From a virus (Duplodnaviria > Caudoviricetes): DNA of 64,000 bases. The notes beneath the pieces are model-generated. The model was not told the DNA's origin and did no database searches. It worked only from the letters and a program-made list of their open reading frames with translations. Below are positions 3,066 through 63,713 of the stretch, piece by piece (within the stretch, counting starts at the first letter, position 1; each line of letters opens with the position of its first letter). Both the position numbers and the translations under genes were made by a program. Location: the IMG/VR virus record IMGVR_UViG_2595698222_000001, positions 1 to 64,000 of that record. One strand, written 5' to 3'.

Positions 3066-3070
3066 CATAA

Positions 3071-3082: not shown

Positions 3083-3169
3083 GAATGGTTATAATATACC
3101 ACTTTCGTATGGACGTGTCAATGCAAAAGAGGAGATAAGTAATTTCAAATAAAGTGGAGGTGAGATACA

Positions 3170-28274: not shown

Positions 28275-28633
28275 TGAAAAAAACGGTCAAGGAACAATTA
28301 AAGAGTTTGGTAGCGCTTAATGCTGCAATCTCTGAGGCTGGAGAAGAAATACAAGCTATTCAAAAGGAAATTAATACATATGGGTATGATGAAAAATATT
28401 CCTCTGCTTTAAATGATCTGAAGCAGAAAACCATCTACCACCGATATCTAAAAGTAAAAAATTATATAAATTTATATGATAAAATAGAAGCTCTGGAAGA
28501 CGAGCAGGAAAAACGCTTGTTGAGATACCGGTATTTACGAGGCTGGCGTTGGGAGGCTATTGCTGATAAAATGGGATATTCACTTAGGCAAACTTTTAAT
28601 ATACATAAGAAAGCTCTCCAAAACATTGAATAG
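28262..28633 (+). CDS. ArpU/RinA-like transcriptional activator
   Basis: LLRYRYLRGWRWEAIADKMGYSLRQTFNIHKKAL. Followed by GTGCA-N5-GTGCA and TG-n-TATGCT at 28639-28673. Confidence 0.8.
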   Translation: MFSMMKKTVKEQLKSLVALNAAISEAGEEIQAIQKEINTYGYDEKYSSALNDLKQKTIYHRYLKVKNYINLYDKIEALEDEQEKRLLRYRYLRGWRWEAIADKMGYSLRQTFNIHKKALQNIE

Positions 28634-37507: not shown

Positions 37508-37807
37508 TTAAATAGCAATTTAACAAAGTATAACTTAGGGTATCACGCACGCAAAGTAATTGATGTTAGCACAATATTAAATAATGTTGCTGATTTAATG
37601 GAGGCTGGTTATTATGGTGGCGATCTGGTGTTACAAGGGTATGCGCCTCCTGACACCTACAATAGTAATTCCTGGGGACTTATACGGTGGGTAGCTGGAT
37701 CTTCTGGTATAGCTTATTTGCAATTTGTACAAGATCGCAGTGCTGCCATTATTACCAGGTCTATTAGTAGGACGGGTAATACGGATACAGGCTGGATATT
37801 ACATTAA
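37508..37807 (+). CDS. Alternative fibre C-terminus 1A (LNSNLTKYNLG...TDTGWILH), no clear RBS
   Basis: Starts with the LNSNL junction also found in the fibre gene; beta-rich with terminal W. Confidence 0.8.
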   Translation, partial: LNSNLTKYNLGYHARKVIDVSTILNNVADLMEAGYYGGDLVLQGYAPPDTYNSNSWGLIRWVAGSSGIAYLQFVQDRSAAIITRSISRTGNTDTGWILH

Positions 37808-37816
37808 AATGATCAT

Positions 37817-38122
37817 TTAATCCAGTAGCACGAATCGAACATAGTAACCAGCATAAATTGCGGCACTTGATTTAATTACGTTAACCTGTAAGGTATTGCA
37901 GTCTATCCTCGTTATTCCGTCCATGGTCCGCAGATCTGACCATGTGCCAGTAGATAACTGTATTTGTGCGGCCAATAGGTATGTATTACCAGATGAACTT
38001 CCACTGATGTTAAATAGTTGGTTGGTAGACGTATCATTAAATACCCCGGCGGCAGTGCGGATGCGACTTGTGTCAAATTTGTTGTTCAGATTATTACTTA
38101 CTCCCGCTAAATTGCTATTTAA
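37817..38122 (-). CDS. Alternative fibre C-terminus 1B (LNSNLAGVSNNLNNKFDTSR...YVRFVLLD), start-less and absent from the ORF track
   Basis: 101 open codons from the site to TAA at 37817. Confidence 0.8.
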   Translation of the reverse strand, partial: LNSNLAGVSNNLNNKFDTSRIRTAAGVFNDTSTNQLFNISGSSSGNTYLLAAQIQLSTGTWSDLRTMDGITRIDCNTLQVNVIKSSAAIYAGYYVRFVLLD

Positions 38123-44030: not shown

Positions 44031-44474
44031 TTGATTATGAAATTGACGAGGGAATATTTAGCGACTTATACATATCTAGAATCCGAAATTAAGCGTCTCA
44101 GGCGCAGGATAAAATACTATGAGAGTAATCCGTTGACTTCTGAATATGGGATTGTGAAAGGATCCCTGCAGCAATTTCCATATACGGAATGCCATTTCGT
44201 AGTTTCAGGGGCAAATGTGAAATCAAATGAGGAAAGAGAAAAGGCGGTACGTCAGCTCCTAATTGATTTGAAAGGCAATGAACAACTTTTTGAAGATATG
44301 AAACTGGAGATAGAGTGTTTTCTTGAAAAGCTGGGACCGGAACAGCTGGAGATGAAGCAAATTCTGTATTTTCGATATGTTGAACGATGGTCTTATGATG
44401 AGATTGCAAGAGAATTAAATTACGATAGAACTACTGTTCAAAAGAAAATTGATAGGTTATTAGACTTAATGTAA
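44031..44474 (+). CDS. RinA/ArpU-like late transcription activator
   Basis: ILYFRYVERWSYDEIARELNYDRTTVQKKIDR. Confidence 0.75.
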   Translation: MIMKLTREYLATYTYLESEIKRLRRRIKYYESNPLTSEYGIVKGSLQQFPYTECHFVVSGANVKSNEEREKAVRQLLIDLKGNEQLFEDMKLEIECFLEKLGPEQLEMKQILYFRYVERWSYDEIARELNYDRTTVQKKIDRLLDLM

Positions 44475-44590
44475 TATTATAATTGCATACACATAGTTAC
44501 CTGAAATGTATTCTATGTATTTTAATATTATTGGTATTTTATTTATTGGTAATTTGTGATAAAATTAAGCATTATGGGGGGTGCGAACTA

Positions 44591-46051
44591 ATGAAATTAA
44601 TGGATTATGAATTTGGTTTCGCTGATGCGACAAAGGAGTATATAAGGAAACCAGAAATATTTGAAAATGCTTTTTGTGATACAAGAAACATCGTAGAAAA
44701 ATTGATTGATGGATATGAATTTTTATTGATTGGAAGGAAAGGAGTTGGGAAGTCTGCGTATAGTAGCAAGATTCAATCAATAGCTAAACTTTCCAATACT
44801 GAATTAATAGCAAAATTAATGAATTTAAATGACTTTGAATTTAGCACATTCGCGAAGACGGGAATTGACAACGATGTTTCAGGAACCCAAAAATATAAGA
44901 GTTCATGGGATTTTATATTATTGTTTGCAATATATAAAGTATTATTTAATGATTTACAAATGACAGAATCTAGTGCCATAAATGATGTAGTGTTTATGCT
45001 TGATCAAGCTGGATTCTCTTTGGATAATGAATATAAAACTGATATAGTTCGATTAACAAAAATAAAAATGGGTGTTGGAGTAGTTAATTTTGATGCGGAA
45101 TTCGAAAAGAAATATAACTCATCTCCAAGTAATTATTTAGAAAGAATTTCAGTTATAACAGAAAAAATGCTGTATGGAATTTCAGATGCATACTTAAATG
45201 AAAGAAAAGTTGTAATTATTATAGATGGCTTAGATGATGTTTTAAGATATAAAAAAAATAAAGCTGAAATAATATCTAGCCTGATTAGAAGTGTAGACTT
45301 TTTAAATGACAAGTGTGCTCAATTTCATAAAAAAATAAAAATAGTATTACTTATTAGAGAAGATATTATTGCCATGTTAAATGATCCTGATCTAAATAAA
45401 ATAATACAAGATGGTGCTATTATTTTAAATTGGAGCAATCGATTAGAGGAATTAAAGAAAATTGTAGACTTACGATTTCAATTATCAGGTATGTCAGAAT
45501 CGAATGCTCTGAAGTGTTGGGATAAGATTTTTCCTCCAAAGATTAGGGGCAAAAGCACATGGTTACATGTCCTAGATCATACACTATATAAACCAAGAGA
45601 TATTTTGCAATTTCTAAAATATTGCCAAATGGAATATCCAAATAATGAAACATTATCACTTTCGGATACACAAAATTCTCTCAAGGTATATTCAAATAAA
45701 TATTTTATCGAGGAAATGAAAAATGAATTGTCGGGATTTATTGATGAAGAATTGATATATCTAATACCTACTGTATTTAGAAGATTGGGCGGAAGAGCAT
45801 TTGATTTAAAAGAGATAGTACGTTTATTTGACGAACAATGCAATAAATGTGTTACCGAAGATTCAATTAAAACTTTGTTGCTATATTTATTTGATGCTGG
45901 TTACATTGGACAGCTTGTATCAAATGGAAATAAGAATGGGACAAAGAGATCAGTGATTTTCAAATATCGTAATCCAACGGCAAGAATTGACTATTATCAA
46001 AAATTTATAACACATCAAGGTTTGCATAGTGGTTTAGGTGTAAGATTGTAA
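44591..46051 (+). CDS. P-loop ATPase moron (candidate anti-phage)
   Basis: GRKGVGKS, IIIDGLDD, LLIREDI, KPRDILQF. Very low GC. Hairpin at about 46053-46088. Confidence 0.8.
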   Translation: MKLMDYEFGFADATKEYIRKPEIFENAFCDTRNIVEKLIDGYEFLLIGRKGVGKSAYSSKIQSIAKLSNTELIAKLMNLNDFEFSTFAKTGIDNDVSGTQKYKSSWDFILLFAIYKVLFNDLQMTESSAINDVVFMLDQAGFSLDNEYKTDIVRLTKIKMGVGVVNFDAEFEKKYNSSPSNYLERISVITEKMLYGISDAYLNERKVVIIIDGLDDVLRYKKNKAEIISSLIRSVDFLNDKCAQFHKKIKIVLLIREDIIAMLNDPDLNKIIQDGAIILNWSNRLEELKKIVDLRFQLSGMSESNALKCWDKIFPPKIRGKSTWLHVLDHTLYKPRDILQFLKYCQMEYPNNETLSLSDTQNSLKVYSNKYFIEEMKNELSGFIDEELIYLIPTVFRRLGGRAFDLKEIVRLFDEQCNKCVTEDSIKTLLLYLFDAGYIGQLVSNGNKNGTKRSVIFKYRNPTARIDYYQKFITHQGLHSGLGVRL

Positions 46052-46194
46052 AAAGGGATTCCCCGGACATGCCGGACGGGAATCCCTAAAAGTAGCTACT
46101 CTTTCATAGTATATCTTGAATATATATGATTTATTCAAAGATTGCAAGTCCTTTTTTTAAAAAGTGATATTTTTTGATTTAGAATTGGTGAAAC

Positions 46195-46234
46195 ATTCCC
46201 ACAATTCCCATTTCTAATATGATAAAATGATATC
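46195..46234 (+). promoter_or_regulatory. Late promoter copy 1 (tail tip-lysis operon)
   Basis: ATTCCCACAATTCCCATTTCTAATATGATAAAATGATATC; 35/40 identical to 62033-62072. Confidence 0.72.
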
Positions 46235-49327: not shown

Positions 49328-50151
49328 GAGGTTGCAAGCAAGGAGCAGTAGATTTTCCCCTGCTCCTTTCCTATGTCAAGAAATGAACAGTGGTTTTTAG
49401 AGTGAGAGGATTATAATTTGATTAAGTCCTCGCCTATTCATTATTTGCCATAAATTTAGGGAGATTGATTGAACTGGTTATGAAATCAGAAGGAGCATGT
49501 TAATTGCTACGGTCCTAAAACCTGTTTTTCAACAGACCAGATACAGGATTGTTTTATTAAGGTTCCTATTTACGAACAGTTAACTATGTTCAGTGAAATC
49601 ATTACAAGATATTAAGGAGGACATACATAAGTATGAATACATATGTAAAGCTGGAAGTGAAGCAACTATTGACACATCTGTGTTTTGCAAGGACTTTAAA
49701 GAAAAAAACATGAAAATATTTCTGTGGCCCCGAATTGTATCTGTATGCGTTCCATATATCCCAGCGGCTTTATTTTGGAAGTGAAAGAGCATGCAGAAAG
49801 GGTTATTATAAGGACTAACCGTGAGTTGATTGATAACGATAATGGGGGCTTTTTGTGTTTCTGAAGAGTGATTCAGATAAAAATACAAATGGAGAGCGAG
49901 GATTGATTCCTCGCTCCTTTTGTATGCCTTTTGTATTGCAAAACGTCAAAATACTATTAAATTTAAATTTCAAAAGGCCTTTTGAGTAAAAACTATTTGA
50001 AAAACGTATGTTCTTATAGTATGGTCATATTGTAAGAATAAATGAAAAAGCTACATTCTAAGTGGCAAGTGGGGTTTGTTAGCGATACTAAATAAACTCA
50101 AAAAGCTTTTACACTTACAGAAAATAAAAACGCAAAGGAGAAGATATTACA

Positions 50152-50364
50152 ATGATTGATAATGTGAAAAACGTGGAAGAGGCTGTTAAACTGGCAAAAC
50201 GGACAACTTGCAATGATCTTTTATTTGTTGCAGGCATGGCAAGGTTTTATAATTGCAAGCCATTGAATATGGAGAGGGACGATTTTCTTCTCTTTTTAAG
50301 TACACTTTACCATTATGGAAAGATTCAGGGAATACGACAGGAACGAGCAAAGAGAAGAAATTGA
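50152..50364 (+). CDS. Small hypothetical protein, possibly SOS-regulated
   Basis: YHYGKIQGIRQERA. AAACGTATGTTC at 50002-50013 lies between TTGAAA and TATAGT. Confidence 0.55.
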   Translation: MIDNVKNVEEAVKLAKRTTCNDLLFVAGMARFYNCKPLNMERDDFLLFLSTLYHYGKIQGIRQERAKRRN

Positions 50365-50702
50365 ATGACAACATTTTAGTGGTTGTCGATTATTTAGCAA
50401 AATTAGCTGACAACAATTTTGTGGTGTGTGGTTATTCCTTTGACTGACCAGAAAACTCTAAGGAATAGTGAAGTGAAGGACATTTTCCCGTCACCGTATT
50501 TACTGAAGCGAAAATTCGCCTTAGTAAGCTCACATCAAAAAGATAGTGGTTAATAATGATAAATATACGGATTTTTAACGATGGACAAATGTCCGTGGTT
50601 GATTATTTTAATGGTGAAAGCTAAAGAGTACTGGCTTGGAAATGGGTTATGAGGTCAAAAAGATATTTGATGCCAATTACGGTGAGGTAAATACATATCA
50701 TC

Positions 50703-51074
50703 GTGAAGTTTGGGAAGCGGTTTATCCCGAATATGAAATTTAATAAAGTAATGAGTTTAGAAAGAGCGTCCTTAACCGGACGTTCTTTTTCTACGCCGAA
50801 AGGAGGAAATAACTTGAAAAGGGTAATCACATTTACTGAGGAACAGGTAATGCAGATACAGTACATGTTAAATGCCGTCACCGTAACCGGTATCCAGAAT
50901 GCCAAGCAGGTGGCAGCCATTGCGCAAATGTTGGAGTTGGGAATGCCGGAGGAAATTAATGAGTCCGCAGAGAGCGAAAAATTTAAAGACGTGTATTCGC
51001 CGGTCGATTGGGAAAACCCGCCTGAAAGAAAGACCACAATCAGTAACGAAAAAAAGAAAGAGGGTGCCAGTTAA
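50703..51074 (+). CDS. Small tail-associated protein (start probably TTG near 50814)
   Basis: RBS AGGAGG; coupled to the next gene. Confidence 0.5.
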
Positions 51075-52003
51075 TGGCTTATGGACCATATTACTACATA
51101 ACTGACTGGAAAAATGAACCTTCGCAGGAAACACCCATAAACCGTACAAATCTCCTTAAAATTGAGAATGGCATTAAAGAGGCAGATAACCGGATTGTTC
51201 AGCTTGATGCCAAGAAGGCAGAGCAGGCCCTTGTAAACACCCTTGTAAAAGAAATTACCCTGGATACGGATACAGGTATCCTGACCGTGACCCAACAGAA
51301 TGGAACAGTAACTACTTATGACCTGGCCATTGAAAAGGTTGTAGCAAACTTTGACATTAATGATGATAATGAGCTGGTTCTCACCTTGGCAGACGGCACA
51401 CAGAAGGTAATTGACCTTACCCGGTTTGTCTATTCCGTGGACAGTACATCTACGATTGCAATGAAAATCCTTAACCGGACTATTACCGCAGAGATCGTTG
51501 ACGGTTCTGTGACCATGGCTAAATTGGACGCTTCCATACAGATGGAACTTAGGCAGTACATGCTTGATGCTCAGGCAGCCAGGGATATGTCCCTCCAATA
51601 TCAGAATAATGCCAAGATCTTCCGGGATCAGACGGAGGTAATTGCAAACGAGGCCGTAACAGACATAGCTGCAGCCGGGGGCCGTGTAGATGAAACCTTG
51701 ACAGAGTTTAATTCCCTGCTTATGAACGGGTATTTCAATGGACCGATGGGGCCGCAGGGGCTACAAGGAAATCAGGGGGCCACGGGGGCCACAGGAGGAC
51801 AGGGGCCACAGGGGATTCAGGGGATCCAAGGTCCTCGTGGGCCACAAGGGGAACGAGGATCTGATGCTGTAGTGACGCAGACTAATGGTAATTATATTTT
51901 CCAGATACGAGATGGACACTTATATGTGATTTACCCAGACTCTTCTTCTGAGCCGCCGCCAGTGCATATTAATGAAGCAGGACATTTTATAGTGACTTTT
52001 TAA
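51074..52003 (+). CDS. Tail fibre/baseplate protein with collagen-like repeat
   Basis: [21 protein letters not shown]; G-x-y repeats. Confidence 0.8.
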
Positions 52004-52015
52004 AGGAGGTCAGAT

Positions 52016-53068
<1,053 letters not shown>

Positions 53069-53072
53069 TCAC

Positions 53073-53330
53073 TTATACGATTGTGGTTGTTCCTGTACTG
53101 ACGTCATTAAACGATCCGTCCGGATTGACCGTAAATGTGAAATTGCTCAAATATAGGTGGTTATCCCTTATGCCAAGTCTTGTAGCGGTACCTGTGGCAA
53201 AATTACGTGATGTAATATATGTTCCGGTAGCATCGTTATAGATAGTCGATCTTAATGTATTTTCGCTATTAATTAAACTCATAGACTTCTGTACACCACT
53301 ACCAAACAGTCCAACTAAATTGCTATTTAG
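53073..53330 (-). CDS. Alternative fibre C-terminus 2B (LNSNLVGLFGSG...GTTTIV)
   Basis: Would be in frame with the fibre N-terminus if unit 2 inverts. Confidence 0.85.
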   Translation of the reverse strand, partial: LNSNLVGLFGSGVQKSMSLINSENTLRSTIYNDATGTYITSRNFATGTATRLGIRDNHLYLSNFTFTVNPDGSFNDVSTGTTTIV

Positions 53331-53406
53331 TAGAAAAGAGAAACTTAAAAACTGGTCCCTCATAGGGGCTTATTTTATTGCCTGAATACGGGCGGAAAGG
53401 AATCTT

Positions 53407-53835
53407 ATGAGTATTGAAAAAATCAAATTCGGTGATCAGGTATTCGACCTGGTGCCCGCAGGTGTAGATCTTGTAGATGGTGGAGGAACCATCAAATTTC
53501 TGATGGGAGAAAAGCGCTTTGAGGAGATCGAAACCATCCTGCAGGCCAATAGTACCATCAAGCAGATTGCCCGATCAGGCGATACAGACTGGTCGCGATC
53601 TGATCTGGTTTATGGTGATTTTGTATCAAGAGATGCCAACTATGTAATAGGTACGGCGGATGATGGTGTAACCGTCATTACGGCCGCTGTAATGATTGCC
53701 ACGTTCCGTACACCAGATTTACGCGAAAGGGTAACAGCACTGGAAAAAGAAAATGAGAATATCAAAAAGGAAAATGCAGCAATGAAAGAAAGTTTAGGAA
53801 CTCTGATTTTAAATAACTTAGAGGAGGTTAAATAA
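53407..53835 (+). CDS. Tail fibre-associated protein (chaperone-like position)
   Basis: C-terminal coiled coil; lies between the fibre and the XkdX-like gene. Confidence 0.55.
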   Translation: MSIEKIKFGDQVFDLVPAGVDLVDGGGTIKFLMGEKRFEEIETILQANSTIKQIARSGDTDWSRSDLVYGDFVSRDANYVIGTADDGVTVITAAVMIATFRTPDLRERVTALEKENENIKKENAAMKESLGTLILNNLEEVK

Positions 53836-53972
53836 TGTTTGATATGCTGAAGTGGTTATACGATGGTGGAAAAGGAAAGTTGACTATCAATGGCCTGGTA
53901 AATGCTGTCATAAAGGGCTGGATTACCGAAGCACAGAAACAGGAGATCATTGGAACAATAGACAGCCAGTAA
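53835..53972 (+). CDS. XkdX-like small protein
   Basis: MFDMLKWLY...AVIKGWITEAQKQEIIG; RBS GGAGGT. Confidence 0.7.
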   Translation: MFDMLKWLYDGGKGKLTINGLVNAVIKGWITEAQKQEIIGTIDSQ

Positions 53973-53988
53973 AACAGGGAGGGGAGAT

Positions 53989-54654
53989 ATGATACTTGAC
54001 TTCCAAGTCAACAAGCAAAATTTAATTAGAGCAGACACCGAACAGCCGGCGGCCCAGAGTATGCAGTATCTTATGTGTCGGTTTACCTTCCAGTCTGATG
54101 ATTGGGACAGCATGGAAAAGCACGCTGTCTTTCGGAAATATCTAAGTGATAGCATTGATGCCTATACGCTCCCGTTGAATAGCGAAGGAGTCGCTATGGT
54201 TCCGTCAGAAGTTATCACAGCTAGAGGCTTTGAGGCATCTGTATACGGTTATAATGATGGGCAGCGGATTACCACGAACAAGATATACATTTCGATTCAG
54301 GAAACTGGATATGAGCAGGGAAAAGTACCAAGCGTCCCTGCTCATGATTTATATGAGCAACTCCTTGATGCCATGAAAAAGCAGGTAAATGGTTTGTCTT
54401 ATGAATCAGGATACATGCAACTCATGGCAGGGGGGATGTCAATAGGCGAAAGGGTCCGTGTATCAGGAACAAATGAAACCCGGGAAATAGAATTTACTAA
54501 TGATGGGACCTATATAAAGTGGCGGTATACAGATAGCAATGATTGGCAGCAACTGGTAAGCCTTCAGGCAATTACCGGTCCGCAGGGTCCACCGGGGGCA
54601 ACGCCAGAATTTGAAGTGAGATCGGGGCGCCTAATCGCAAAGTATAATGAATAA
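53989..54654 (+). CDS. BppU-like baseplate/fibre adaptor
   Basis: F-FQSDDW...K-AVF...VPSEV...TTN; short collagen tail. Confidence 0.65.
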   Translation: MILDFQVNKQNLIRADTEQPAAQSMQYLMCRFTFQSDDWDSMEKHAVFRKYLSDSIDAYTLPLNSEGVAMVPSEVITARGFEASVYGYNDGQRITTNKIYISIQETGYEQGKVPSVPAHDLYEQLLDAMKKQVNGLSYESGYMQLMAGGMSIGERVRVSGTNETREIEFTNDGTYIKWRYTDSNDWQQLVSLQAITGPQGPPGATPEFEVRSGRLIAKYNE

Positions 54655-55294
54655 GGAAGTGAAAGAAATGGCGGTAAGAGAAGAAGATTTAGGAAGTGTC
54701 ATCGGCCCTCAGGGCCCTCAAGGAATACAGGGGGAAGTCGGCCCGACTGGTGCAAAAGGTGATAAGGGCGAAGATGGAGCAAAATGGCTCACAGGTACCT
54801 CTGCTCCATCAACTCAAGGTACGAACGGGGATTATTATTTAAATACCAGCAACTGGGATGTATATCAGAAAGCATCGGGCACTTGGTCTAAAACAGGAAA
54901 TATCAAAGGTGCTACAGGTGCCAAGGGTGATAAAGGCGATCCGGGTGCGACCGGAGCCCAAGGACCAAAGGGGGATCCTTTTGCTATTGCCAAGACCTAT
55001 ACAAGCGTAGCTGCAATGAATTCAGGATATTCCACGGACGGTGTTGGTGTTGGACAGTTCGTAGTGATTGATACCGGAAATGTTGAAGATGTTGACAATG
55101 CGAAGTTGTATTTAAAAGGGGTTACTGCCTATACCTACATTACGGATATGTCCGGGTCGACCGGCTTAACAGGTCCTCAGGGGCCAAAGGGCGCAACGGG
55201 TGCGACAGGCCCTAAAGGCGATAAGGGTGATCAAGGGGTATCTCCCATGTTTGAACTTAGAAGCGGGCATTTATTTGCTATCTATCCGGAATAG
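54647..55294 (+). CDS. Collagen-like fibre protein
   Basis: DLGSVIGPQGP start shared with the 52016 gene; G-x-y repeats. Confidence 0.75.
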   Translation: MNKEVKEMAVREEDLGSVIGPQGPQGIQGEVGPTGAKGDKGEDGAKWLTGTSAPSTQGTNGDYYLNTSNWDVYQKASGTWSKTGNIKGATGAKGDKGDPGATGAQGPKGDPFAIAKTYTSVAAMNSGYSTDGVGVGQFVVIDTGNVEDVDNAKLYLKGVTAYTYITDMSGSTGLTGPQGPKGATGATGPKGDKGDQGVSPMFELRSGHLFAIYPE

Positions 55295-55334
55295 CAGAGG
55301 TTGTGACAATTTATAGAAAGCATGAGGTAATTAT

Positions 55335-55556
55335 ATGCCTACAGAAATAATGGTGGCACTTATTAGTTTGGCCGGCAGTGGGGTGGGGGCTTTTATAGGA
55401 ATCCTGGCATCTGCAAAGCTTACTAATTATCGCCTAGAGCAGTTGGAAAAGAAGGTTGACAAACATAATACTGTAATTGAACGCACTTTTAGGCTTGAGG
55501 AACAAATGAAAGTTGCAAATCACCGCATAGCGGATTTAGAGGAAAAAGGAGATTGA
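55335..55556 (+). CDS. Small membrane protein (holin-associated)
   Basis: One TM helix followed by YRLEQLEKKVDKHN coiled coil. Confidence 0.7.
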   Translation: MPTEIMVALISLAGSGVGAFIGILASAKLTNYRLEQLEKKVDKHNTVIERTFRLEEQMKVANHRIADLEEKGD

Positions 55557-55560
55557 TTAT

Positions 55561-55854
55561 ATGGAACAGATCATGAATTACGTAAAACCGGAACTTATTA
55601 TTGTAGCGGTGGTGCTGTACTTTCTGGGAATGGGCCTTAAGCAGAGCCAGACGGTCAAGGACAAGTACATTCCGCTGGTAAATGGTGCTGTAGGAATCGT
55701 TCTGTGCGGCGTATATGTCTTAGCTACCAGTGCCTGCCAGACTGGGCAGGAAATTGCTATGGCGATATTTACGGCCATTACGCAGGGTGTTCTGGTTGCA
55801 GGATTGAGTACATATGTAGATCAGATTATTAAGCAGTCTAGAAAAACTGAATAA
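55561..55854 (+). CDS. Phage holin
   Basis: Three hydrophobic segments, KDKYIPL, AITQGVLVAG; precedes the endolysin. Confidence 0.88.
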   Translation: MEQIMNYVKPELIIVAVVLYFLGMGLKQSQTVKDKYIPLVNGAVGIVLCGVYVLATSACQTGQEIAMAIFTAITQGVLVAGLSTYVDQIIKQSRKTE

Positions 55855-55926
55855 TTGTTGTGATATCACAACTTTTGGGCCTGGGATTATCCTGGGCCTT
55901 TTCTATTTGAAAGGAAGGGTAGATTT

Positions 55927-56829
55927 ATGAAAATCTGTTTAGATGCTGGTCATTATGGAAAATACAATAAAAGCCCTGCTGATGGGCGATATTACGAATC
56001 AGACATGGTATGGAAACTTCACTTGATGCTTAAAAGATATTTAGAGGAGTACGGCATGCAGGTAATTACTACCCGTGTAGATCAGGCAACAGATCGGGCA
56101 CTCTATGATAGAGGGACAGCATCAGCCGGGTGTAATCTATTCATTTCTTTGCACAGTAATGCCACAGGCTCCGGATTGAATAATAACGTTGACTATCCGG
56201 TATCTTATTGTGCTATCAACGGCAGAGCGGACGATATTGGCCTTGCTTTGGCAAAAGCGGTACAAGTTACCATGCAGACCAAACAGGCCGCCAGAATCGA
56301 ACACAGGGCGGGTAACAACGGGGATTACTATGGGGTTCTGCGTGGTGCTTCCGCAGTAGGCACTCCTGCACTTATCCTGGAGCATTCCTTTCACACAAAC
56401 GCTTCGGTAACTGCCTGGCTCTTAAATAACGAAAACCTTGTACGCTTAGCAAAAGCAGAAGCAGACGTTATAGCAGCGCATTTTGGCATTCAGAAGGAAA
56501 AGAAATCCGGGTGGAAACAGGAGGACGGCGGTTGGCGTTTCTACAATGGCGATAACGGGGAATACGTGCGGAATAACTGGCACCATGATATAGAAAAGGA
56601 CCTTTGGTACTGGTTTGATGGCGCTGGTATGATGGTCACAAACACATGGTATCAGTATAAAGGCGGCTGGTATTATCTCAACGCAGATGGTGTTATGCTA
56701 AAAGGTACTCTGATCGCAGAATCCGAAAAGGTTTATTGCCTGGATAGCGAGGGCAAAATGGTTGTGGAACCGGTCATGCTCACGCCGGGACAGGATGGGG
56801 CGCTGCAGTACCCGGGGTTGGCAGAGTAA
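55927..56829 (+). CDS. Endolysin (Amidase_3 plus cell-wall-binding repeats)
   Basis: LDAGH, E, ISLHSNA, ILEHSFHTN; WYWFD and WYYLN repeats. Confidence 0.93.
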   Translation: MKICLDAGHYGKYNKSPADGRYYESDMVWKLHLMLKRYLEEYGMQVITTRVDQATDRALYDRGTASAGCNLFISLHSNATGSGLNNNVDYPVSYCAINGRADDIGLALAKAVQVTMQTKQAARIEHRAGNNGDYYGVLRGASAVGTPALILEHSFHTNASVTAWLLNNENLVRLAKAEADVIAAHFGIQKEKKSGWKQEDGGWRFYNGDNGEYVRNNWHHDIEKDLWYWFDGAGMMVTNTWYQYKGGWYYLNADGVMLKGTLIAESEKVYCLDSEGKMVVEPVMLTPGQDGALQYPGLAE

Positions 56830-57121
56830 ATAAAAAGAGCAAAAGCCTACTGGGATAGACTTTTGCTCTAAGATGCAGAGGCCGCTGCACCTATGTACGA
56901 TGTGTACACATCTAATAATATGGCTTTATTAATAATAATATGCTAGGACCAATTAAAAAATTGCTACATATAATATATTGTACGAAGACATTGTACGATC
57001 ATTTATATAAATCTCCTTTATTTGTAGACTTCTGTAAGGCGGGTATCCGGAAATTCCGAGCCCGCCTATAAAAGATACTTTGCAATCTGCCAATAACACA
57101 GGTGTTTTAATCCTTCAAGCA

Positions 57122-58423
57122 TTAAAAGGACAACTTCTGGATGTAATATTGAGTATTAATAATAAACCACATTTGGGTATCAAATCTCATAATAGTCCAG
57201 AGAGATAAACCTTGAAGATCATATTCTGCTACCAGCCCGGCTCTTGCCTCAAAACTTCTCGCATCATTAAACCACACTAAGTGAAGAATCCCGTCACTAT
57301 CCATATAATAGAAAAAAGGTGACTGTGCTGCTTCGTTAAATTGTATTGGTATATTGTTATCTGCTGCAATCTGTATTGCATTATTGTTTGCTATAGCAGT
57401 TGCTTCTGTTGCACCCGGAACATAGGGTAGTGTCCAATCATAACCGAGTGTAGTGATTCCTAAGAATAATAATTCGAGTGGAATAATACTGGTTACGTAG
57501 TCTAATAGTTCTCTTAAAACATTAACCGGAAAAATTGAACTTGGGTAACTATAAAATCTAGCCCAATCATAAGAAGCAAATAGAATCCCATCTACATATC
57601 CAGATAATCGTGAATAATCCAACTTTTCAAAGCTGACAATAGGCCCCTGAATATTCATAATTGGCGTTGTGGTTATTAGTACTCTATAACCTTCAGAACG
57701 AAATATAGCTGAAGCCTTTTTAATGTATTCTACAATACTGTTTATGTTATCCGGTGTAATATCTTCGATATACATATTCACTCCATAATAACCCTTTGTT
57801 TTTACCATTTGAAGAATATTATCAATAAGACGATCTTGCACAGAAGAGTTATTTAAAATATTCTGAGTTACTTCACGAATAATAGTTCCTTCTTCCGTAA
57901 TCGTAGAAACAAACATCATGGGCGCAACACCATAAGTTTTAGCCAACTGAATTACATCAGAATCGTCAGCAATAGTAATAATTTCTCCTTCACTTGTAGC
58001 CCTATAATTGAATATAGTCAAATATGTTAAAAAAGGGAGCGTTTTTATTAAAACAGATTTATCTATATATGAAAAAGTATAACCACTAGTGGCAATTGTT
58101 CTTGTTTTGTTAGTTTGATAGCTTAAGACTATCGTTTCACCGGCATACAAAAATTCTCTGTCAGAAAGATAGGGATTATTTCTTAATAAAGCCATTGGCG
58201 TAGTACCATGCTGCTCTGCAATACTCTCCAAAGTATCGCCGGGTTGGACAACATAGAGTGTTTCTGGCTGTACAATCACGATAGTTTGACCAATTGCTAA
58301 ATTGCCAGGGTTTGTAATTCCGTTTTCCAATATTAAACTGTCAACTGGGATTTTATAATAATCTGATATTGATTTTATGGTTTCACCGGGTTGGACAACA
58401 TGTATGATCATGGAATCCCTCAA
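57122..58423 (-). CDS. LysM-LysM-GH18 spore germination protein (YaaH/SleL/YdhD-like); start probably ATG 58411
   Basis: Two LysM domains, GH18-like barrel, YDW, AQSPFFYY, LQGLSLW. Sporulation-type -10 CATATAAT upstream. Confidence 0.88.
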   Translation of the reverse strand: MRDSMIIHVVQPGETIKSISDYYKIPVDSLILENGITNPGNLAIGQTIVIVQPETLYVVQPGDTLESIAEQHGTTPMALLRNNPYLSDREFLYAGETIVLSYQTNKTRTIATSGYTFSYIDKSVLIKTLPFLTYLTIFNYRATSEGEIITIADDSDVIQLAKTYGVAPMMFVSTITEEGTIIREVTQNILNNSSVQDRLIDNILQMVKTKGYYGVNMYIEDITPDNINSIVEYIKKASAIFRSEGYRVLITTTPIMNIQGPIVSFEKLDYSRLSGYVDGILFASYDWARFYSYPSSIFPVNVLRELLDYVTSIIPLELLFLGITTLGYDWTLPYVPGATEATAIANNNAIQIAADNNIPIQFNEAAQSPFFYYMDSDGILHLVWFNDARSFEARAGLVAEYDLQGLSLWTIMRFDTQMWFIINTQYYIQKLSF

Positions 58424-58584
58424 ATGATCTTATTAATACTATTATATGCTAATCTTACATGTTCATAACATCATAATGTAGATATAATACTAGCGGCCTG
58501 GGCGGGCAGCCAGGAGCATACCAAGCCATCCACTATTGATTTTTCGAACGTTCGTGCCGATTCCAAATACTCCCATATGTTTTC

Positions 58585-59415
58585 CTATCTATTGTAATAC
58601 TGCTCAAACCATCGTGGTTTTCTCATATATTCAGCTTTTTCTTTCGTTTCCTTACCAGACTCCCTAAAAAATCCGCAGCTTGTATGATCGGCTCCGCAAC
58701 CTTCTTTATCTCTAATGTAATGGGGGCAATGGTTAATGTCCTCCGCGAGCCCACAATTTCCTAACATGCTAACACCTCGATTGTCTGTTCTGTTAATGGT
58801 GGAAATAAAAGGAGGGAAGCACTGTGGCTTCCCAATTCTTGTTAATGAATGCCTACTCTGAATAATCCAATTGTCCATTGAATCGTTTTCTGGTTGCAGG
58901 CGGTAATGACTCTTTTCTTTAAAAAACCGTTTTACTGTAGCCGAGTCATCGACCAGTGCATCAACAATATCCCCATTATGCGCAGTTGCTCGGTATTCTA
59001 CGATAATCTGATCGCCTTCAAGAATACCTGCGTTGACCATACTGTTTCCTTTAACTTTTAATATAAAGGTCTCTGCATTTGGAAGTAATTCAGCTGATAT
59101 GGGATAATAGTTCTCAATGTTTTCCTCTGCATAAAGAGGCAGTCCGGCCGCTACGGTTCCGAGGAGCGGAACGTTCACAACCTCCCGGCGTGTCAGCTGG
59201 AAACAATCGTCTATGATTTCAATGGATCTTGGCTTAGTTGGGTCTCTTCTTATGTATCCCTTTTCCTCGAGAATCGACAAATGAGAATGGACGGAAGAAG
59301 TTGATTTTAAATTAACTGCTTCACATATTTCTCGGACCGATGGGGGATAGCCATTCTTTAAGATTGATTTTTTTATATACTCTAAAATTTCCTTTTGGCG
59401 TTCTGAAATGTCCAC
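58585..59415 (-). CDS. lexA: LexA homologue with its normal C-terminus replaced and read through into a small Cys-rich ORF
   Basis: GYPPSVREIC, VAAG, GNSM, ATVKR, LQPEND, then divergent sequence. Internal RBS and ATG at 58767. Confidence 0.85.
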   Translation of the reverse strand: MDISERQKEILEYIKKSILKNGYPPSVREICEAVNLKSTSSVHSHLSILEEKGYIRRDPTKPRSIEIIDDCFQLTRREVVNVPLLGTVAAGLPLYAEENIENYYPISAELLPNAETFILKVKGNSMVNAGILEGDQIIVEYRATAHNGDIVDALVDDSATVKRFFKEKSHYRLQPENDSMDNWIIQSRHSLTRIGKPQCFPPFISTINRTDNRGVSMLGNCGLAEDINHCPHYIRDKEGCGADHTSCGFFRESGKETKEKAEYMRKPRWFEQYYNR

Positions 59416-59472
59416 ATTTAACCCGTCCTTTATTTTGTTTTACTGATAATAGCATACTTAGATGCAAAAAGC

Positions 59473-59484
59473 AAACGTTTGTTC
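59473..59484. promoter_or_regulatory. SOS box between lexA and the divergent ORF
   Basis: AAACGTTTGTTC (reverse complement GAAC-AAAC-GTTT). Confidence 0.65.
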
Positions 59485-59536
59485 GAAAAAGACTATACAC
59501 GTAAAGTAATTTGTAGTATCATTATAGAAAAGGTAG

Positions 59537-59854
59537 GTGATTAAGATGATGGATACTATATCCAAGGATTTATATAGTAAAGTTATGAAGGCCCAATATC
59601 AGATGATTGAAGCTTTTTTAGATTATGTGAACTATGAAGATGAAATAGCAGACGGTTTGACAGGAATGTCATATATATTATTTTGTGAAAACATTCCATT
59701 TTCTTTTGATGGGCAATGCATAGCGGTACCTGATTTTGGATTAAAAATATCTTCTGGAGAAAAAGAGAAATTATATGTTGAATTTGAAAATGTAAAGAAA
59801 TCCGAATGTTATCCTGCAGAGGTCTATAATAAATATTTAGAAAAGAGAAAATAG
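59537..59854 (+). CDS. Hypothetical protein; its stop codon lies inside the left end of unit 3
   Basis: RBS AGGTAGGTG; TAG at 59852-59854 falls within AAATAGCAATTT. Confidence 0.6.
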   Translation: MIKMMDTISKDLYSKVMKAQYQMIEAFLDYVNYEDEIADGLTGMSYILFCENIPFSFDGQCIAVPDFGLKISSGEKEKLYVEFENVKKSECYPAEVYNKYLEKRK

Positions 59855-60011
59855 CAATTTGAATAATACGAAATCGGCCCTAACAACTACTCAGGCAAAC
59901 ATCGATACCCGTATTCCGTCTCGAATCGCTTTCCGATGGAATGATGGAGGAGCCCTACAGCTCTACATAGATGGTGTCTATTATGCATCGATAGAATTTA
60001 TTGATAAATGA
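59850..60011 (+). CDS. Alternative fibre C-terminus 3A (NSNLNNTKSAL...GALQLYIDGVYYASIEFIDK), start-less
   Basis: 53 open codons from the site to the TGA in the central palindrome. Confidence 0.75.
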   Translation, partial: NSNLNNTKSALTTTQANIDTRIPSRIAFRWNDGGALQLYIDGVYYASIEFIDK

Positions 60012-60015
60012 TCAT

Positions 60016-60333
60016 TTACTGTAGTGTAATAGGTGATCTGAGTATGCACCAGAATACTTTTAAACTTTCGGAGGCGAAACTTGGGCTTGTGTTATAGGCC
60101 ATCAATCTAAATCCAGCTGGGGTTAAAGAGACGGCACTTATCTCTACGTCTGCCCACCCAGCCCCCATACCCCCTTTACTTAAAAGTATGGCGTAATTAT
60201 CATCTGATAGGGGCGTGCCAAACGGGATGTCATAAATTGCGCTGCCAAGTGGTTGTAATGCGCTTACAGTGTAAGACCAGTGCTGTGCATTTTTTGCCAA
60301 ATTATTACTTAGGTTATTTAAATTGCTATTTAA
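60016..60333 (-). CDS. Alternative fibre C-terminus 3B (LNSNLNNLSNNLAKNAQ...KVFWCILRSPITLQ)
   Basis: ORF 60016-60300 extends in frame to LNSNL at the site; beta-sandwich-like pattern. Confidence 0.82.
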   Translation of the reverse strand, partial: LNSNLNNLSNNLAKNAQHWSYTVSALQPLGSAIYDIPFGTPLSDDNYAILLSKGGMGAGWADVEISAVSLTPAGFRLMAYNTSPSFASESLKVFWCILRSPITLQ

Positions 60334-60400
60334 TTAATTATGAAGGTAGTAGACAAAATAAAAAAAGACCACTTATAAGCAGTCTTTCTTATCACTTGGT

Positions 60401-60601
60401 TTATGCAATTTGAACATTAACAGCCTGTAATCCACGATTACCTTCTGTTACATCAAATGTTACAGACTGACCATCGTCTAAAGACTTATAGCCGTCCATA
60501 GCAAGACCTGAGAAATGAACGAAAATTTCGTTACCCTGCTCGTCAGCGATAAAACCAAATCCCTTTTGTGCATTAAACCATTTTACTGTACCTTTATTCA
60601 T
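60401..60601 (-). CDS. cspA: Cold-shock protein
   Basis: [18 protein letters not shown]...IFVHFS; RBS AAGGAGG. Confidence 0.95.
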
Positions 60602-61105
60602 GAAAGATACCTCCTTAAATATTAATATTGTATTTTTGCTAAAACTAAAAATCGCATATATATGTAAATCATCAATAGAATAATGACTTACGTATATATG
60701 CGAAATCAAGACCTTATTTAAATACCTATCTATCTTAACACAATGGTTTAAATAAGTCAAGAAAAACTTGCAAAGAAGGCCACATTGAAAAAATCATCAA
60801 AAAAAGCACAACGCAAAGCGGGAAAGGTGTTCCAGGCTTAGAATATTGGGAGATTAGTTTATAAGGTAATCAAGTGATTAGTTAAGTCTCGACTAACCAC
60901 CAGATACCTTGGGAGATCCACCTTACTGGTGATTATTTCTATTTTTTATATTTTACTATAAATTCACGTTGGCTTTGCATTAAAACAGATCTTATCTGTG
61001 GGGAAAATAATGATGGAAATATTGGTTAATATAGTTGAAATGGTTTTGACATGCTGATAAGGGATGATAATGAATTGCATTTGATAAATGTAAAATGGTT
61101 TAGGA

Positions 61106-61600
61106 TCATTGTTCATAGATAAATGGGATAACTTCTTCACGCTTAATGTTCAATACATAAGCGAACTCCTCACAAAGTGTTTTTTCAGCATCTTTGAGAA
61201 AGCATTCGTCAGAATCCTGTAGTTTCTTGTCTTTATTTGTGCTTTTTAGCTCTTGTTTACGACTACGCAAAGTTTTTATCATTTCTATAAGTTCGGAACG
61301 GTTACCATCTGCAAGAACCTGGCCGTATAATTCTTTGCGCTTTCGATTATCCTTTATCCAATTGTGGTCTTTACTCGACAATTTCTTGACTAGAAAGAAA
61401 ATTTCATCGGCAGAAAGAATGTGGCGAATTTCAGTTTTTCTTCTGTCACTTATAGCTGAGACGTATAATGTCGAGGCAGTATGGTAAACAGGCTTGAGCA
61501 CGTAATATGGGCGGATTTTTTCATCCATGCACATATCCTGTAATCCGGTAACCCTACAAACACCATGACTTCCGTATATGATGACATCACCTATGTTCAT
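61106..61600 (-). CDS. CarD-family transcriptional regulator
   Basis: IGDVIIYGSHGVCRVTG...YYVLKP...AEKTLCEEFAYVL. Confidence 0.88.
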   Translation of the reverse strand: MNIGDVIIYGSHGVCRVTGLQDMCMDEKIRPYYVLKPVYHTASTLYVSAISDRRKTEIRHILSADEIFFLVKKLSSKDHNWIKDNRKRKELYGQVLADGNRSELIEMIKTLRSRKQELKSTNKDKKLQDSDECFLKDAEKTLCEEFAYVLNIKREEVIPFIYEQ

Positions 61601-61805
61601 AATATTTCACCTCTTTCTAATAAAATAAAAAGTGCGGTTCACTAAAACTGGACTTACGTCCCTGTAAAGCAAACCACACGTTCGATATTTATATTATAGC
61701 ACAATTGTAGATGAAATGTATACGGTAATTTACTCCAAAGTTCACGACTATATCATGGGCTTATCTATTTAGTATTTTCCGGAGTGCCGGGAGAAAGGTG
61801 GAATT

Positions 61806-62006
61806 ATGAAAGTGTGGAATAGAAAATATGATAATGATCACAAAGAACTAGAAGAGAAGATAATGGTAAAAGACCAATATAACAGAATGATGATGATAAG
61901 AGTTGCGAAGAAATACAATCTGGACGATCAGATCAATACAAGAATTGAATTAGAATATCACAGTAGTAAAAATTATGAAGTTTCTATATCGGATCTACTA
62001 AATTAA
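61806..62006 (+). CDS. Small hypothetical protein; its stop lies inside an orphan recombination site
   Basis: RBS AAGGTGG; TAA at 62004-62006. Confidence 0.5.
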   Translation: MKVWNRKYDNDHKELEEKIMVKDQYNRMMMIRVAKKYNLDDQINTRIELEYHSSKNYEVSISDLLN

Positions 62007-62018
62007 ATTGCTATTTTA
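62003..62018 (-). repeat. Orphan copy of the LNSNL site
   Basis: TTAAATTGCTATTTTA, followed on the minus strand by an immediate stop (NSNLI*). Confidence 0.65.
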
Positions 62019-62032
62019 GAATAGACCTCAAG

Positions 62033-62072
62033 ATTCCCACATTTCCCATTCATAATATGATAATATGGTATC
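62033..62072 (+). promoter_or_regulatory. Late promoter copy 2 (portal-head operon)
   Basis: ATTCCCACATTTCCCATTCATAATATGATAATATGGTATC. Confidence 0.72.
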
Positions 62073-62261
62073 AGTGAAAAGTATATCAACATGCGCTTGG
62101 CTTCGGCTAGGCGCATTTTTCGTGGGTGAAATTATGGAAAAAAGATTTGAAAAGCCAAAGCAAAATAAAAAAGAATCTATCTGGAGAGATAAAAGTGCCA
62201 AACACCCAGAAGGCAAATCTTCCAGTGGGATGACTTTTAGGGTTAAGAAGGTGATAAGTGG

Positions 62262-63713
62262 ATGAACAAACTCAGTTACATTGATATTTGCAAAGGTGCA
62301 TTCGGGCGCAAGGTAGCATATACCAGTGTTTCGACCATTACTTCCGAAAATATTTTGAAAGTAGTTGGTAGGGCGGTTAGTATCCTGAATTATAATAGGC
62401 CGTTCATTCGTTATCTTCATGATTACTATATGGGGGATCAGCCAATTTTGTACAGGGAAAAGGCAGTGCGCCCAGAAATTAATAATAAGACAGTGGAAAA
62501 TCATGCTTTGGAAATAGTGCGTTTTAAGGCAGGTCAGACATACGGTGAGCCTATCCAATACGTGAGCCGAAAAAAAGATGAGAACATTAATAAAGCTGTT
62601 GATGCACTTAATGATTACATGAGGGACGCTCATAAGCAGGCAAGAGATATTGAACTTGGAACATGGCAAAGTTCGGTAGGTACTGCATATAAGGCCACCT
62701 TAAAAGCAGGCAAAAACAATCCGGTTCCCTTCTGGATACACATTCCCACGCCGTTAAATACAATTGTTGTATATTCGCAGGTAGATGGCCGGGATATGCT
62801 TTCAATTCAGCAGTTAAAAGACGAAAACGAGCAACAGTACTATCTTTGTTTTTCCGAAGATAAATACTTCATTATTAAGAATGGCCGGATTACCGATAAC
62901 AATATTAATGGATTTGGAGGAATTCCTATAATAGAATATCCTAATAATCCGGATCGGTTATCTGACATTGAAATCGTAATTACAGCTTTGGATCAGATGA
63001 ACAAAATGCAGTCTGATCGAATGAATGGCATTGAGCAGTTTGTTCAGGCATTTATGCTTTTTAAAAACTGTGAGATTTCAAAAGATGAATTTATAGAAAT
63101 GAGCCAGTTGGGTGCAATACAGGTTAAAGATTCGGGCCAAGCCAATAAGTCAGATGTGAAGCTTATGACTGCTGAACTTAATCAAGAGCAAACTCAGGTA
63201 TCCAAAGACGATGTATATCGTCAAGTGCTTGTGGTTGAGGGAATGCCAGATCGTCAGCAAAATACCGGCGGTGATACCGGCCAAGCGGTTTATCTTAGAA
63301 ATGGTTGGGATTTTGCAGAACAGAGGGCAAAACTCGATGAACCATTCATTATTGAGGCAGAAAAGAAACATTGTCAAATCGTGCTTAATATCATCAAGCA
63401 GACAACCAATGATGTTCCTTTGACAGTAAGAGATTTTGATGTTAAAATCACTCGAAACTCAACTGACAATATGCTTGTTAAGGCACAGGCATTGGATTAT
63501 TTATTGAAAAACAAAGTTAACCCATTAATTGCTTTAACCACTTGCGGTCTGTTTGGAGACCCTGAAAAGGTATGGTTAATGAGTAAACCCTATATGGATA
63601 CAATATTTAAAACGCAAGAACAATTAGATGTTGAAGTAGAAAAAGGAAGAGCATATGAATTGCTAAAGAATCAATCGAATAATGCAGTAGCTAAAACAGG
63701 AGAAGCCGAATAG
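62262..63713 (+). CDS. Portal protein (SPP1 gp6-like)
   Basis: YYMGDQPIL, NNKTVENHA, YGEPIQY, GGIPIIEYPNN, SDRMNGIEQF. Confidence 0.92.
   Translation: MNKLSYIDICKGAFGRKVAYTSVSTITSENILKVVGRAVSILNYNRPFIRYLHDYYMGDQPILYREKAVRPEINNKTVENHALEIVRFKAGQTYGEPIQYVSRKKDENINKAVDALNDYMRDAHKQARDIELGTWQSSVGTAYKATLKAGKNNPVPFWIHIPTPLNTIVVYSQVDGRDMLSIQQLKDENEQQYYLCFSEDKYFIIKNGRITDNNINGFGGIPIIEYPNNPDRLSDIEIVITALDQMNKMQSDRMNGIEQFVQAFMLFKNCEISKDEFIEMSQLGAIQVKDSGQANKSDVKLMTAELNQEQTQVSKDDVYRQVLVVEGMPDRQQNTGGDTGQAVYLRNGWDFAEQRAKLDEPFIIEAEKKHCQIVLNIIKQTTNDVPLTVRDFDVKITRNSTDNMLVKAQALDYLLKNKVNPLIALTTCGLFGDPEKVWLMSKPYMDTIFKTQEQLDVEVEKGRAYELLKNQSNNAVAKTGEAE

Follow-up and report, generated by a model that had tools for sequence, protein, structure and literature searches.

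Dispersed tail-fibre tip cassettes between two classes of short site in a clostridial prophage: a probable case of natural recombinase-mediated cassette exchange

The host range of a phage is set by its fibre tips, and the known switches (Gin, Cin, Min and Rin) flip or shuffle neighbouring segments. The present paper concerns a prophage tail-fibre system in which single tips, each between two boundary sites of its own, appear to be the units of exchange, the donors being stored silently kilobases away. It lies in positions 1 to 64,000 of the IMG/VR virus record IMGVR_UViG_2595698222_000001 (Caudoviricetes), a 64,000-nucleotide stretch here called the window, which is part of one prophage of about 76 kb in the 5.27-Mb genome of a Hungatella-like Clostridium. 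Four units (A, B, C and E, at 37.5, 52.7, 59.8 and 74.8 kb; 483-618 bp) each consist of two convergent C-terminal tips of 53-118 codons, placed between inverted outer sites and meeting at a central palindrome. We consider it rather probable that the system is a dispersed tail-fibre shufflon of single-tip cassettes, and that it represents natural recombinase-mediated cassette exchange at the two site classes.

Gin, Cin and Pin, and Min of the coliphages, are serine invertases that work with an enhancer, and the contiguous segments on which they act also carry assembly genes. We know of no central site class in these systems. They resemble the present locus in having alternative fibre C-termini between inverted repeats behind a constant N-terminal part (unit B, 52710-53329), and Min shuffles several segments, whereas here the prophage has no serine recombinase: none of the five matches to PF00239 in the genome falls within 1302877-1378300. 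In the R64-type plasmid shufflon Rci rearranges contiguous segments with shared sites, and the target is a pilus adhesin. The tyrosine recombinase, the two convergent C-terminal pieces between inverted short sites and the short conserved part of the site are all similar to what is described here, but in R64 the convergent pairs stay together with no site between them, while here pairs were broken up in 14 of 14 tip families. The phase-variable hsdS loci of type I restriction systems have several inverted-repeat classes and one tyrosine recombinase. The likeness is that one recombinase and more than one repeat class shuffle two protein halves independently. The hsdS repeats, however, lie in adjacent genes and are conserved parts of the coding sequence, some at the 5' end and others mid-gene, whereas the second class described here is a non-coding or stop-overlapping 3' palindrome and the donors are kilobases away. 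Finally, in engineered cassette exchange heterospecific lox or FRT sites allow a double crossover to swap a cassette with no net rearrangement. As in that design, each cassette here is bracketed by two classes of site that have common arms and different spacers, and exchange products are present: a given cassette recurs with other partners and flanks, and breakpoints lie at both sites. The engineered method is a laboratory design, whereas we describe a sequence pattern and natural exchange products, and one of the natural site classes is fully symmetric, as the tail-to-tail layout demands.

The Rin shufflon of Bifidobacterium prophages has, according to the available excerpts of PMC6109161, 11-bp sites and contiguous cassettes next to rin. 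From the same excerpts, the two systems share a phage-encoded XerD-like tyrosine recombinase that lacks an arm-binding domain and is distinct from the integrase, a short repeated site (11 bp in Rin, 13 bp here) before each variable C-terminal receptor-binding cassette, one constant N-terminal gene, and variants that are visible in sequencing data. The Rin cassettes form one contiguous block flanked by rin, whereas the present units are dispersed over 38 kb, and these excerpts of PMC6109161 describe no second, palindromic site class at the cassette 3' ends. Furthermore, the recombinase gene considered here is 9.2 kb from the nearest unit (A), 24.4 kb from B and up to 47 kb from the units, and three of the four units are silent and isolated in intergenic DNA. 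Tail fibres are listed among the targets of programmed inversion in the excerpted part of PMC9881135, in which neither 'palindrom' nor 'collagen' has a match and the tables of which contain recombinase names such as PsrA. Full-text searches of one article collection found no account of a central palindromic site, of dispersed silent tip units or of natural fibre cassette exchange; the nearest system that they brought up was the Rin shufflon.

The sites and tips of the four units are the following (all sites from motif searches; E given in window-equivalent positions).

37509-37522, plus strand: outer site A-L, exact TAAATAGCAATTTA, with an in-frame TGA four codons upstream
37511-37807, plus strand: silent tip A-left, 98 amino acids, stop TAA at 37805-37807
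37806-37819: central palindrome of unit A (AAAATGATCATTTA)
37817-38119, minus strand: silent tip A-right, 100 amino acids, family 1
38108-38121, minus strand: outer site A-R, found in the TAAATAGCAATTTA search
52016-53068, plus strand: expressed fibre gene, made up of a collagen-like constant part (to 52709) and tip B-left (118 amino acids, family 0)
52710-52723, plus strand: outer site B-L inside the fibre gene, reading L-N-S-N-L, junction point of recombinant contigs in run X1
53062-53075: central site of unit B (AGAATGATCACTTA), a degenerate palindrome (12-mer form GAATGATCACTT)
53073-53327, minus strand: silent tip B-right, 84 amino acids, family 2
53316-53329, minus strand: outer site B-R, found in the TAAATAGCAATTTA search
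59848-59861, plus strand: outer site C-L (AAAATAGCAATTTG), one or two mismatches, with an in-frame TAG three codons upstream
59850-60011, plus strand: silent tip C-left, 53 amino acids, family 3
60005-60018: central palindrome of unit C (TAAATGATCATTTA), a perfect 14-mer
60016-60330, minus strand: silent tip C-right, 104 amino acids
60319-60332, minus strand: outer site C-R, found in the TAAATAGCAATTTA search
62004-62017, minus strand: lone outer site D, no tip behind it, in direct orientation with C-R
74822 and 75304, plus and minus strand: outer sites E-L and E-R, 10.8 kb past the window end (locus L010, 10822-11316)

The fibre gene at 52016-53068 matches PF01391 (Collagen, 3e-13) and the tail-fibre PHROGs 5073 and 10972 (E-value about 1e-22). 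Site B-L is preceded by 236 open codons, compared to 0-19 at every other site. Since only B-L follows a long open frame, we regard unit B as the expression site and units A, C and E as silent stores. When five isolated tips were searched against PHROGs, four gave nothing and C-right gave a weak tail-fibre match only (phrog_3484, E-value 0.0061). The AlphaFold model of the B-left tip is a beta-sandwich with a mean confidence (pLDDT) of 60.8, for which Foldseek found no match in the PDB at an E-value of 0.001 or below, so that no named fold is supported. A scan of metagenome contigs with the same tip gave 218 candidates, none of which was confirmed.

Comparison with relatives shows that individual cassettes have changed partners, loci and phages, the breakpoints lying at the two sites. 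The first-pass annotation had proposed such exchange and had named beforehand constant co-inheritance of partners as the observation that would speak against it. We clustered 68 tips by blastp (at least 40% identity over at least 60% of the shorter tip) and obtained 14 families with at least two members and 32 singletons. In every one of the 14 families the members are paired with different partner families: family 0, the B-left type, has six members and five partners, family 1, the A-right type, has four of each, and family 3 has three of each. The pairings 0-2, 0-6 and 2-6 are all present, and the sole repeated pairing is that of unit B and its near-identical copy L040. Five pairs of closely similar cassettes, with the identity of their surroundings over 60 nt on either side, are given below.

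G325b_R and window B-left: 97.5% in the cassette, 50% upstream, 53% downstream
G325b_R and L040_L: 97.8% in the cassette, 52% upstream, 53% downstream
G301u2_R and G333c20_R: 98.4% in the cassette, 50% upstream, 48% downstream
G359c35_L and L133_R: 95.5% in the cassette, 48% upstream, 47% downstream
G333c42_R and window A-right: 92.3% in the cassette, 52% upstream, 62% downstream, the partner in G333 being a different one

The flanks are thus 47-62% alike, which is the background level, compared to 92.3-98.4% within the cassettes. In the aligned junctions the identity spans TGATCA and then ends, and the other limit is the outer site, so that breakpoints are located where they had been anticipated. 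The base before TGATCA moves with the cassette; in family 0 the sequence there is always GAA. Whole units have also been exchanged, as L040 is 99% identical to unit B and lies behind a different constant region. L040, L041 and L042 lie on three contigs of one metagenome-assembled genome, which means that prophages with the B-left tip type co-reside in one genome. Near-identical tips are also found with new partners in different phages of a single genus. These alignments show the pattern that cassette exchange would be expected to leave, and the evolutionary footprint that they suggest is clear.

The outer sites stand out in the window. With at most two mismatches the 14-mer TAAATAGCAATTTA has 12 matches compared to 2.14 expected, a number reached in 0 of 100 shuffles, and eight of the nine exact copies of AAATAGCAATTTA in the 5.27-Mb genome lie within 38 kb, arranged as plus/minus pairs. 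Inverted (T/A)AAATAGCAATTTA sites bracket each of the four units. All eight tips begin with AAT AGC AAT TTA, the site being translated in a single frame as N-S-N-L. The site is near-palindromic, its symmetry being broken only at positions 6 and 9. Over 31 outer sites the conservation is limited to (T)AAATAGCAATTTA, with nothing beyond, and is partly due to construction, as one site per locus served as the search key. The 12-mer form is enriched genus-wide over a reversed control, and in 300 other genera of the family the exact 13-mer gave scattered single matches and no pairs. A second outer class that was absent from the earlier description, (T/A)AAATACTGATTTA, was found on both sides of the L042 unit (3030-3624; also L179), which keeps the usual centre GAATGATCATTT. 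The first-pass annotation was correct as to the positions of the outer dyad and the three central motifs and as to the common arms of the two classes. Its 6-bp spacers, however, are better read as 4-bp cores: outer class 1 is TAAAT-AGCA-ATTTA, the central site is TAAAT-GATC-ATTTA and outer class 2 has the core ACTG, the three classes having common 5-bp inverted arms and differing 4-bp cores.

Some further arrangements of outer sites were observed. Tandem sites with 21-nt spacing occur in L205 (G355 C1, 1505-1558), G315 C7 (944981/945002) and G359 C35 (1093/1114), from which it follows that N-S-N-L belongs to a seven-residue repeat in some fibres. In G319 inverted pairs lie 1.6-2.9 kb apart (C22, 33606/36539; C34, 181554/183181) and may mark larger invertible segments. 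The relative G303 has a complete unit, the right-hand site of which aligns with the lone site D. Between the direct sites C-R and D (60333-62003) there are a cold-shock gene (60401-60760, minus strand) and a CarD-like gene (61106-61600, minus strand), and this stretch looks like cargo that could be excised or inserted as a circle.

The 12-mer palindrome AAATGATCATTT has four copies in the 5.27-Mb genome, and three of them mark the exact meeting point of the tips in units A, C and E. As a 14-mer with at most three mismatches the central pattern is not enriched in the window (13 matches compared to 11.7 expected), and the copy at 53062, which has three mismatches, is therefore weak when taken alone. 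For the comparison with relatives, units were gathered via outer sites or tip homology, never via the palindrome. After removal of exact duplicates there were 38 site pairs, of which four were dropped (L077 and G366, without two convergent tips, and two redundant entries from the tandem sites in G355c1), leaving 34 units from 22 records. The palindrome is present in 30 of these, 23 having exact TGATCA and seven having one mismatch of AATGATCATT (TGCTCA, TAATCA twice, TGATTA twice, AGATCA and TGACCA). The four centres without it are those of L093, G325b_3855, G359c20 (TGATCC) and G334, in which the halves are split by 17 nt. In the last case, the L207 unit at 4737-5430, the insert separates the palindrome halves AAATGAT and ATCATTT, as if each cassette had kept its own half-site. 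In the stop-annotated set 13 of 16 units have exact TGATCA; across these 13 AATGATCATT is nearly invariant and the next two positions are commonly A or T.

The stop codons have no fixed relation to the palindrome. The suggestion that they lie in or directly next to it holds for A, B, C and E-left, while E-right has its stop at a distance of 28 nt. In B, C and E the left tip stops at the TGA of the palindrome, whereas in unit A it stops at a TAA ahead of TGATCA, the TGA being out of frame there. Overlapping TGA and TCA stops, the simple explanation that had been raised, do not account for the motif. None of the right tips of these four units stops at TCA: those of A, B and C use TAA (TTA on the plus strand) 1 nt past TGATCA. 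The tips of family 3 have stops 3-25 nt from the palindrome. Counted from the T of TGATCA, the left stops of all units fall between -40 and 0 and the right stops end between +5 and +33. Because the stop positions vary and the palindrome is nevertheless retained, it is not a by-product of stop codons. A site common to two cassettes in tail-to-tail order would have to be symmetric, core included, and this would account for the perfect dyad. When 80-nt RNA segments around four centres were folded, the z-scores against shuffles were 0.62, 0.35, -1.24 and 0.0, indicating no hairpin.

Two further searches concerned the relation between the site classes. A scan of viral contigs for the exact 14-mer palindrome gave 120 stretches, and flanking inverted repeats of at least 12 nt were found in only three of them (L072, L111 and L240), all of the known outer class, so that no further site class was obtained for an analysis of arm co-variation. 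Six possible outer/central hybrid 12-mers were also examined. Of these AAATAATCATTT occurs at five places in other loci, and the reciprocal hybrid occurs once, outside any unit. AAATAATCATTT is found at the unit centres in L110, L148, G333c42 and G320c30, and in G358, a disrupted unit, the first tip terminates in it; this 12-mer can equally be read as a single G-to-A variant of the palindrome. G358 was considered as a lone cassette ending in the palindrome, but was rejected, being a disrupted unit, and was not used.

Recombination at the outer sites was observed in a culture. Four of 24 sequencing runs, X1, X3 and X5 among them, were aligned as assembled contigs to 50500-63500; the uncovered parts in X3-X5 and the lack of a local B-L x B-R joint are evidence neither way. 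Run X1 is of the same strain, with 0 differences from the window in the listed pieces, and contains the reference junction (record 2, 52672-53615). In one X1 contig the match starts at 52711, and ahead of it stands the right flank of unit E as its reverse complement; in another the match ends at 52745 and gives way to the E-right tip. The loose ends of the two contigs map to window-equivalent positions 75317(-) and 75252(-). They represent both reciprocal junctions of B-L x E-R, the products of a 22.6-kb inversion by which a silent tip becomes fused to the fibre gene. The joins are carried by real reads, because the longest exact stretch common to B-L and E-R (18 nt) is shorter than the 31-mers of the assembler. 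Other loose ends of X1 map to paralogous regions elsewhere and are not due to recombination. The outer sites thus recombine, also over 22.6 kb, and join a silent tip to the single fibre gene. Run X5, a metagenome, has a contig that matches B-left as far as 53071, where TGATCA ends, and then passes into unknown sequence. Record 27 of the same run starts to match at 60007, inside palindrome C, and includes tip C-right together with its outer site C-R; 75 letters later it resumes at 53406 in the gene following unit B. These X5 ends at 53071 and 60007 are in agreement with breakpoints at TGATCA. In run X3 the constant region extends to 52726 and the match resumes at 53315 with other tips between them, i.e. 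the whole unit is replaced.

The cassette would accordingly be defined as extending from the 5' outer site (AAATAGCAATTTA, N-S-N-L in frame) to the 3' palindrome (AAATGATCATTT). A Xer-like tyrosine recombinase, in this prophage most likely the product of 27237-28274, may bind the TAAAT/ATTTA arms of both classes, and the differing 4-bp cores (AGCA and GATC) would allow outer sites to pair with outer sites only and central sites with central sites only. A crossover between inverted outer sites would flip a unit, or all DNA between two units, and with outer sites alone two successive inversions would swap only whole units. Breakage of a pair would need a crossover between the tips, where the palindrome is the only conserved sequence. 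An outer crossover followed by a central one is expected to swap the left tip of one unit with the right tip of another and to restore the orientation of the intervening DNA. It is possible, and we propose it tentatively, that one Xer-like recombinase with an asymmetric 5' site and a symmetric 3' site enables any tip kept in a silent unit of the prophage, or carried by a co-resident or infecting relative, to enter the expressed gene through two conservative crossovers with no other change to the genome, AGCA and ACTG defining exchange groups with a universal centre.

The recombinase gene itself, at 27237-28274 on the plus strand, encodes a Xer-like tyrosine recombinase of 345 amino acids (PF00589, 2.8e-29) with SAM-like N-terminal domains. 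The best NCBIfam matches of the product are XerA, XerD and XerC, all below the cut-off, and those in the PDB are the XerC-like 4a8e and XerA 5hxy. It is the sole recombinase of the prophage besides the integrase (1-1263, minus strand). Homologues of 43-97% identity occur in 10 unit-bearing records, including 97% in G301 and 89% in G303, which are both syntenic with the window, 64% in G310 and 44% in G305, and seven of 24 same-genus genomes have homologues of 97-35% identity. Of 13 units whose flanks both have fewer than 30 open codons, 12 are in homologue-bearing records (OWN, G301, G303, G329, G325, G334 and G333) or are duplicates of units in these; the thirteenth, L133, is on G309, a 17%-complete fragment with no match. 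As far as gene content can tell, the enzyme is the best cis candidate in this prophage, but it cannot be required everywhere, because units are intact in genomes without a homologue. Large serine recombinases are nearest to several units in such genomes, and a host Xer-like enzyme is a possible actor, the host having two conserved proteins of this type. Two genes after the Xer-like gene there is a Dam-family adenine methyltransferase gene (29816-30577; TIGR00571 2.1e-30, just below the cut-off). GATC methylation at the palindrome core could gate binding or cutting.

Several observations speak against cassette exchange by site-specific cutting of both site classes. All five same-genus genomes examined in this respect (G315, G320, G330, G355 and G359) carry units whose sites and palindromes are intact, their best matches to the 27237 product being 27% identical and far from the units; neither they nor the provirus G307 have a homologue above 27-29% identity. 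G307, which is 99% complete and carries the L042 unit with outer class 2, is without a tyrosine recombinase and contains only a large serine recombinase, a 482-amino-acid frame at the contig end. The conserved part of the sites is only 13 nt (outer) and 10-14 nt (central), with no longer arms; known tyrosine-recombinase core sites are about 28-34 bp. The position of the breakpoints alone is weak evidence, because abutting tips force viable breaks into a short gap. A symmetric core would also permit deletions between two central sites. The exchange between loci and phages that had been proposed is seen as an evolutionary footprint in partners and breakpoints, while the sole junction from a culture lies at outer sites and not at the palindrome, the same-strain run X1 having no central-site loose end among the matches listed, although contigs drop rare forms. 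The B-L x E-R pair, moreover, has the longest flanking likeness (35 nt with three mismatches), and homologous recombination is possible there.

It is conceivable, although we consider it unlikely, that the palindrome is bound by the recombinase or an accessory protein and never cut, having an architectural or regulatory role in the meeting of outer sites or through GATC methylation, and that the reassortment consists of rare illegitimate events followed by selection. The arms that the palindrome has in common with the outer site, the X1 result and the presence of a Dam-family methyltransferase gene near the recombinase gene, the core being GATC, would all suit such a role, and with abutting tips selection alone would put viable breakpoints there. 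Illegitimate joins, however, would not preserve the same 10-14 nt, which 30 of 34 units have done, and a change of partners in all 14 families, in some cases at 95-98% cassette identity, points to frequent and precise exchange. The flank base that travels with the cassette (GAA in family 0) is also what is expected for crossovers within TGATCA.

A second alternative, to which we assign a slightly lower probability, is that the exchange is real but driven by homology, through host RecA or the RecT-like protein of the prophage (8155-9078), with the short boundary sequences as anchors and the palindrome uncleaved. The prophage does encode RecT-like and SbcC-like proteins, the 35-nt likeness at the X1 junction would provide homology, and units persist in genomes without the Xer-like recombinase. 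Identities of 12-14 nt are, on the other hand, far below those that RecA or RecT use efficiently, and neither the central dyad with the arms of the outer site nor the second outer class, with the same arms and only the core changed, is explained by homology. That TGATCA with its A/T flanks is a by-product of convergent TGA/TAA gene ends in A+T-rich DNA, or a two-way terminator, is very improbable and was rejected: most tips do get their stop from the palindrome in the 14 exact or one-mismatch cases among 16 units (left TAA at -4 or TGA at 0, right mirrored), but the motif is kept with stops at several offsets, some of them outside it, the TGA in unit A is out of frame for the left tip, three of the four genome copies of the 12-mer are at unit centres, and the RNA folds do not exceed shuffles.

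The surrounding genes belong to one prophage. Besides those discussed above, the main features are as follows.

1-1263, minus strand: integrase, followed by replication and recombination genes (family searches)
5020-7023: SbcC-like protein, prophage-encoded
8155-9078: RecT-like annealing protein, prophage-encoded
3' of 27237-28274: a sigma-like regulator, then two DNA methyltransferases (family searches)
28262-28633 and 44031-44474: sigma-like regulators
42324: terminase (family search)

According to family searches, tail genes, two collagen-like fibre genes and an amidase form a further block, a variable stretch contains LysM/GH18, LexA-like, cold-shock and CarD-like genes, and portal, major head, major tail and a tape-measure protein of 1455 amino acids are also encoded. 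A 43-nt direct repeat, 86% identical between its copies at 46192-46234 and 62030-62072, lies ahead of both late blocks (tail/fibre/lysis, and portal to tape measure). This repeat is probably a late promoter common to the two blocks, and perhaps the two sigma-like regulators serve it. The possibility of a scrambled prophage, with the block from portal to tape measure (62262 onward) displaced by inversions, was rejected, as the relative G303 has the identical order; because of this and the promoter-like repeat before both late blocks, we take the gene order to be native. Between the terminase region and the late repeat there is a P-loop ATPase of the Sll1717 family (44483-46051; NF047389, 1.7e-80), the slot of which is occupied by a silent tip unit in the relative G301. 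Between the lysis genes and unit C (57122-59415) there are a LysM/GH18 gene and a gene for a LexA-like repressor that has an S24 peptidase domain; G303 has a different insert of 6.8 kb at that place. Megablast of 50000-62100 against a phage collection gave no match.

If the palindrome is indeed the second crossover site, the fibre cassettes described here would be the natural counterpart of a widely used genome-engineering method, and would provide a compact heterospecific site pair of 13-14 bp together with a small recombinase. For the phages themselves, cassette exchange would explain how prophages of gut Clostridia trade receptor-binding modules at a high rate while their genomes stay unscrambled.

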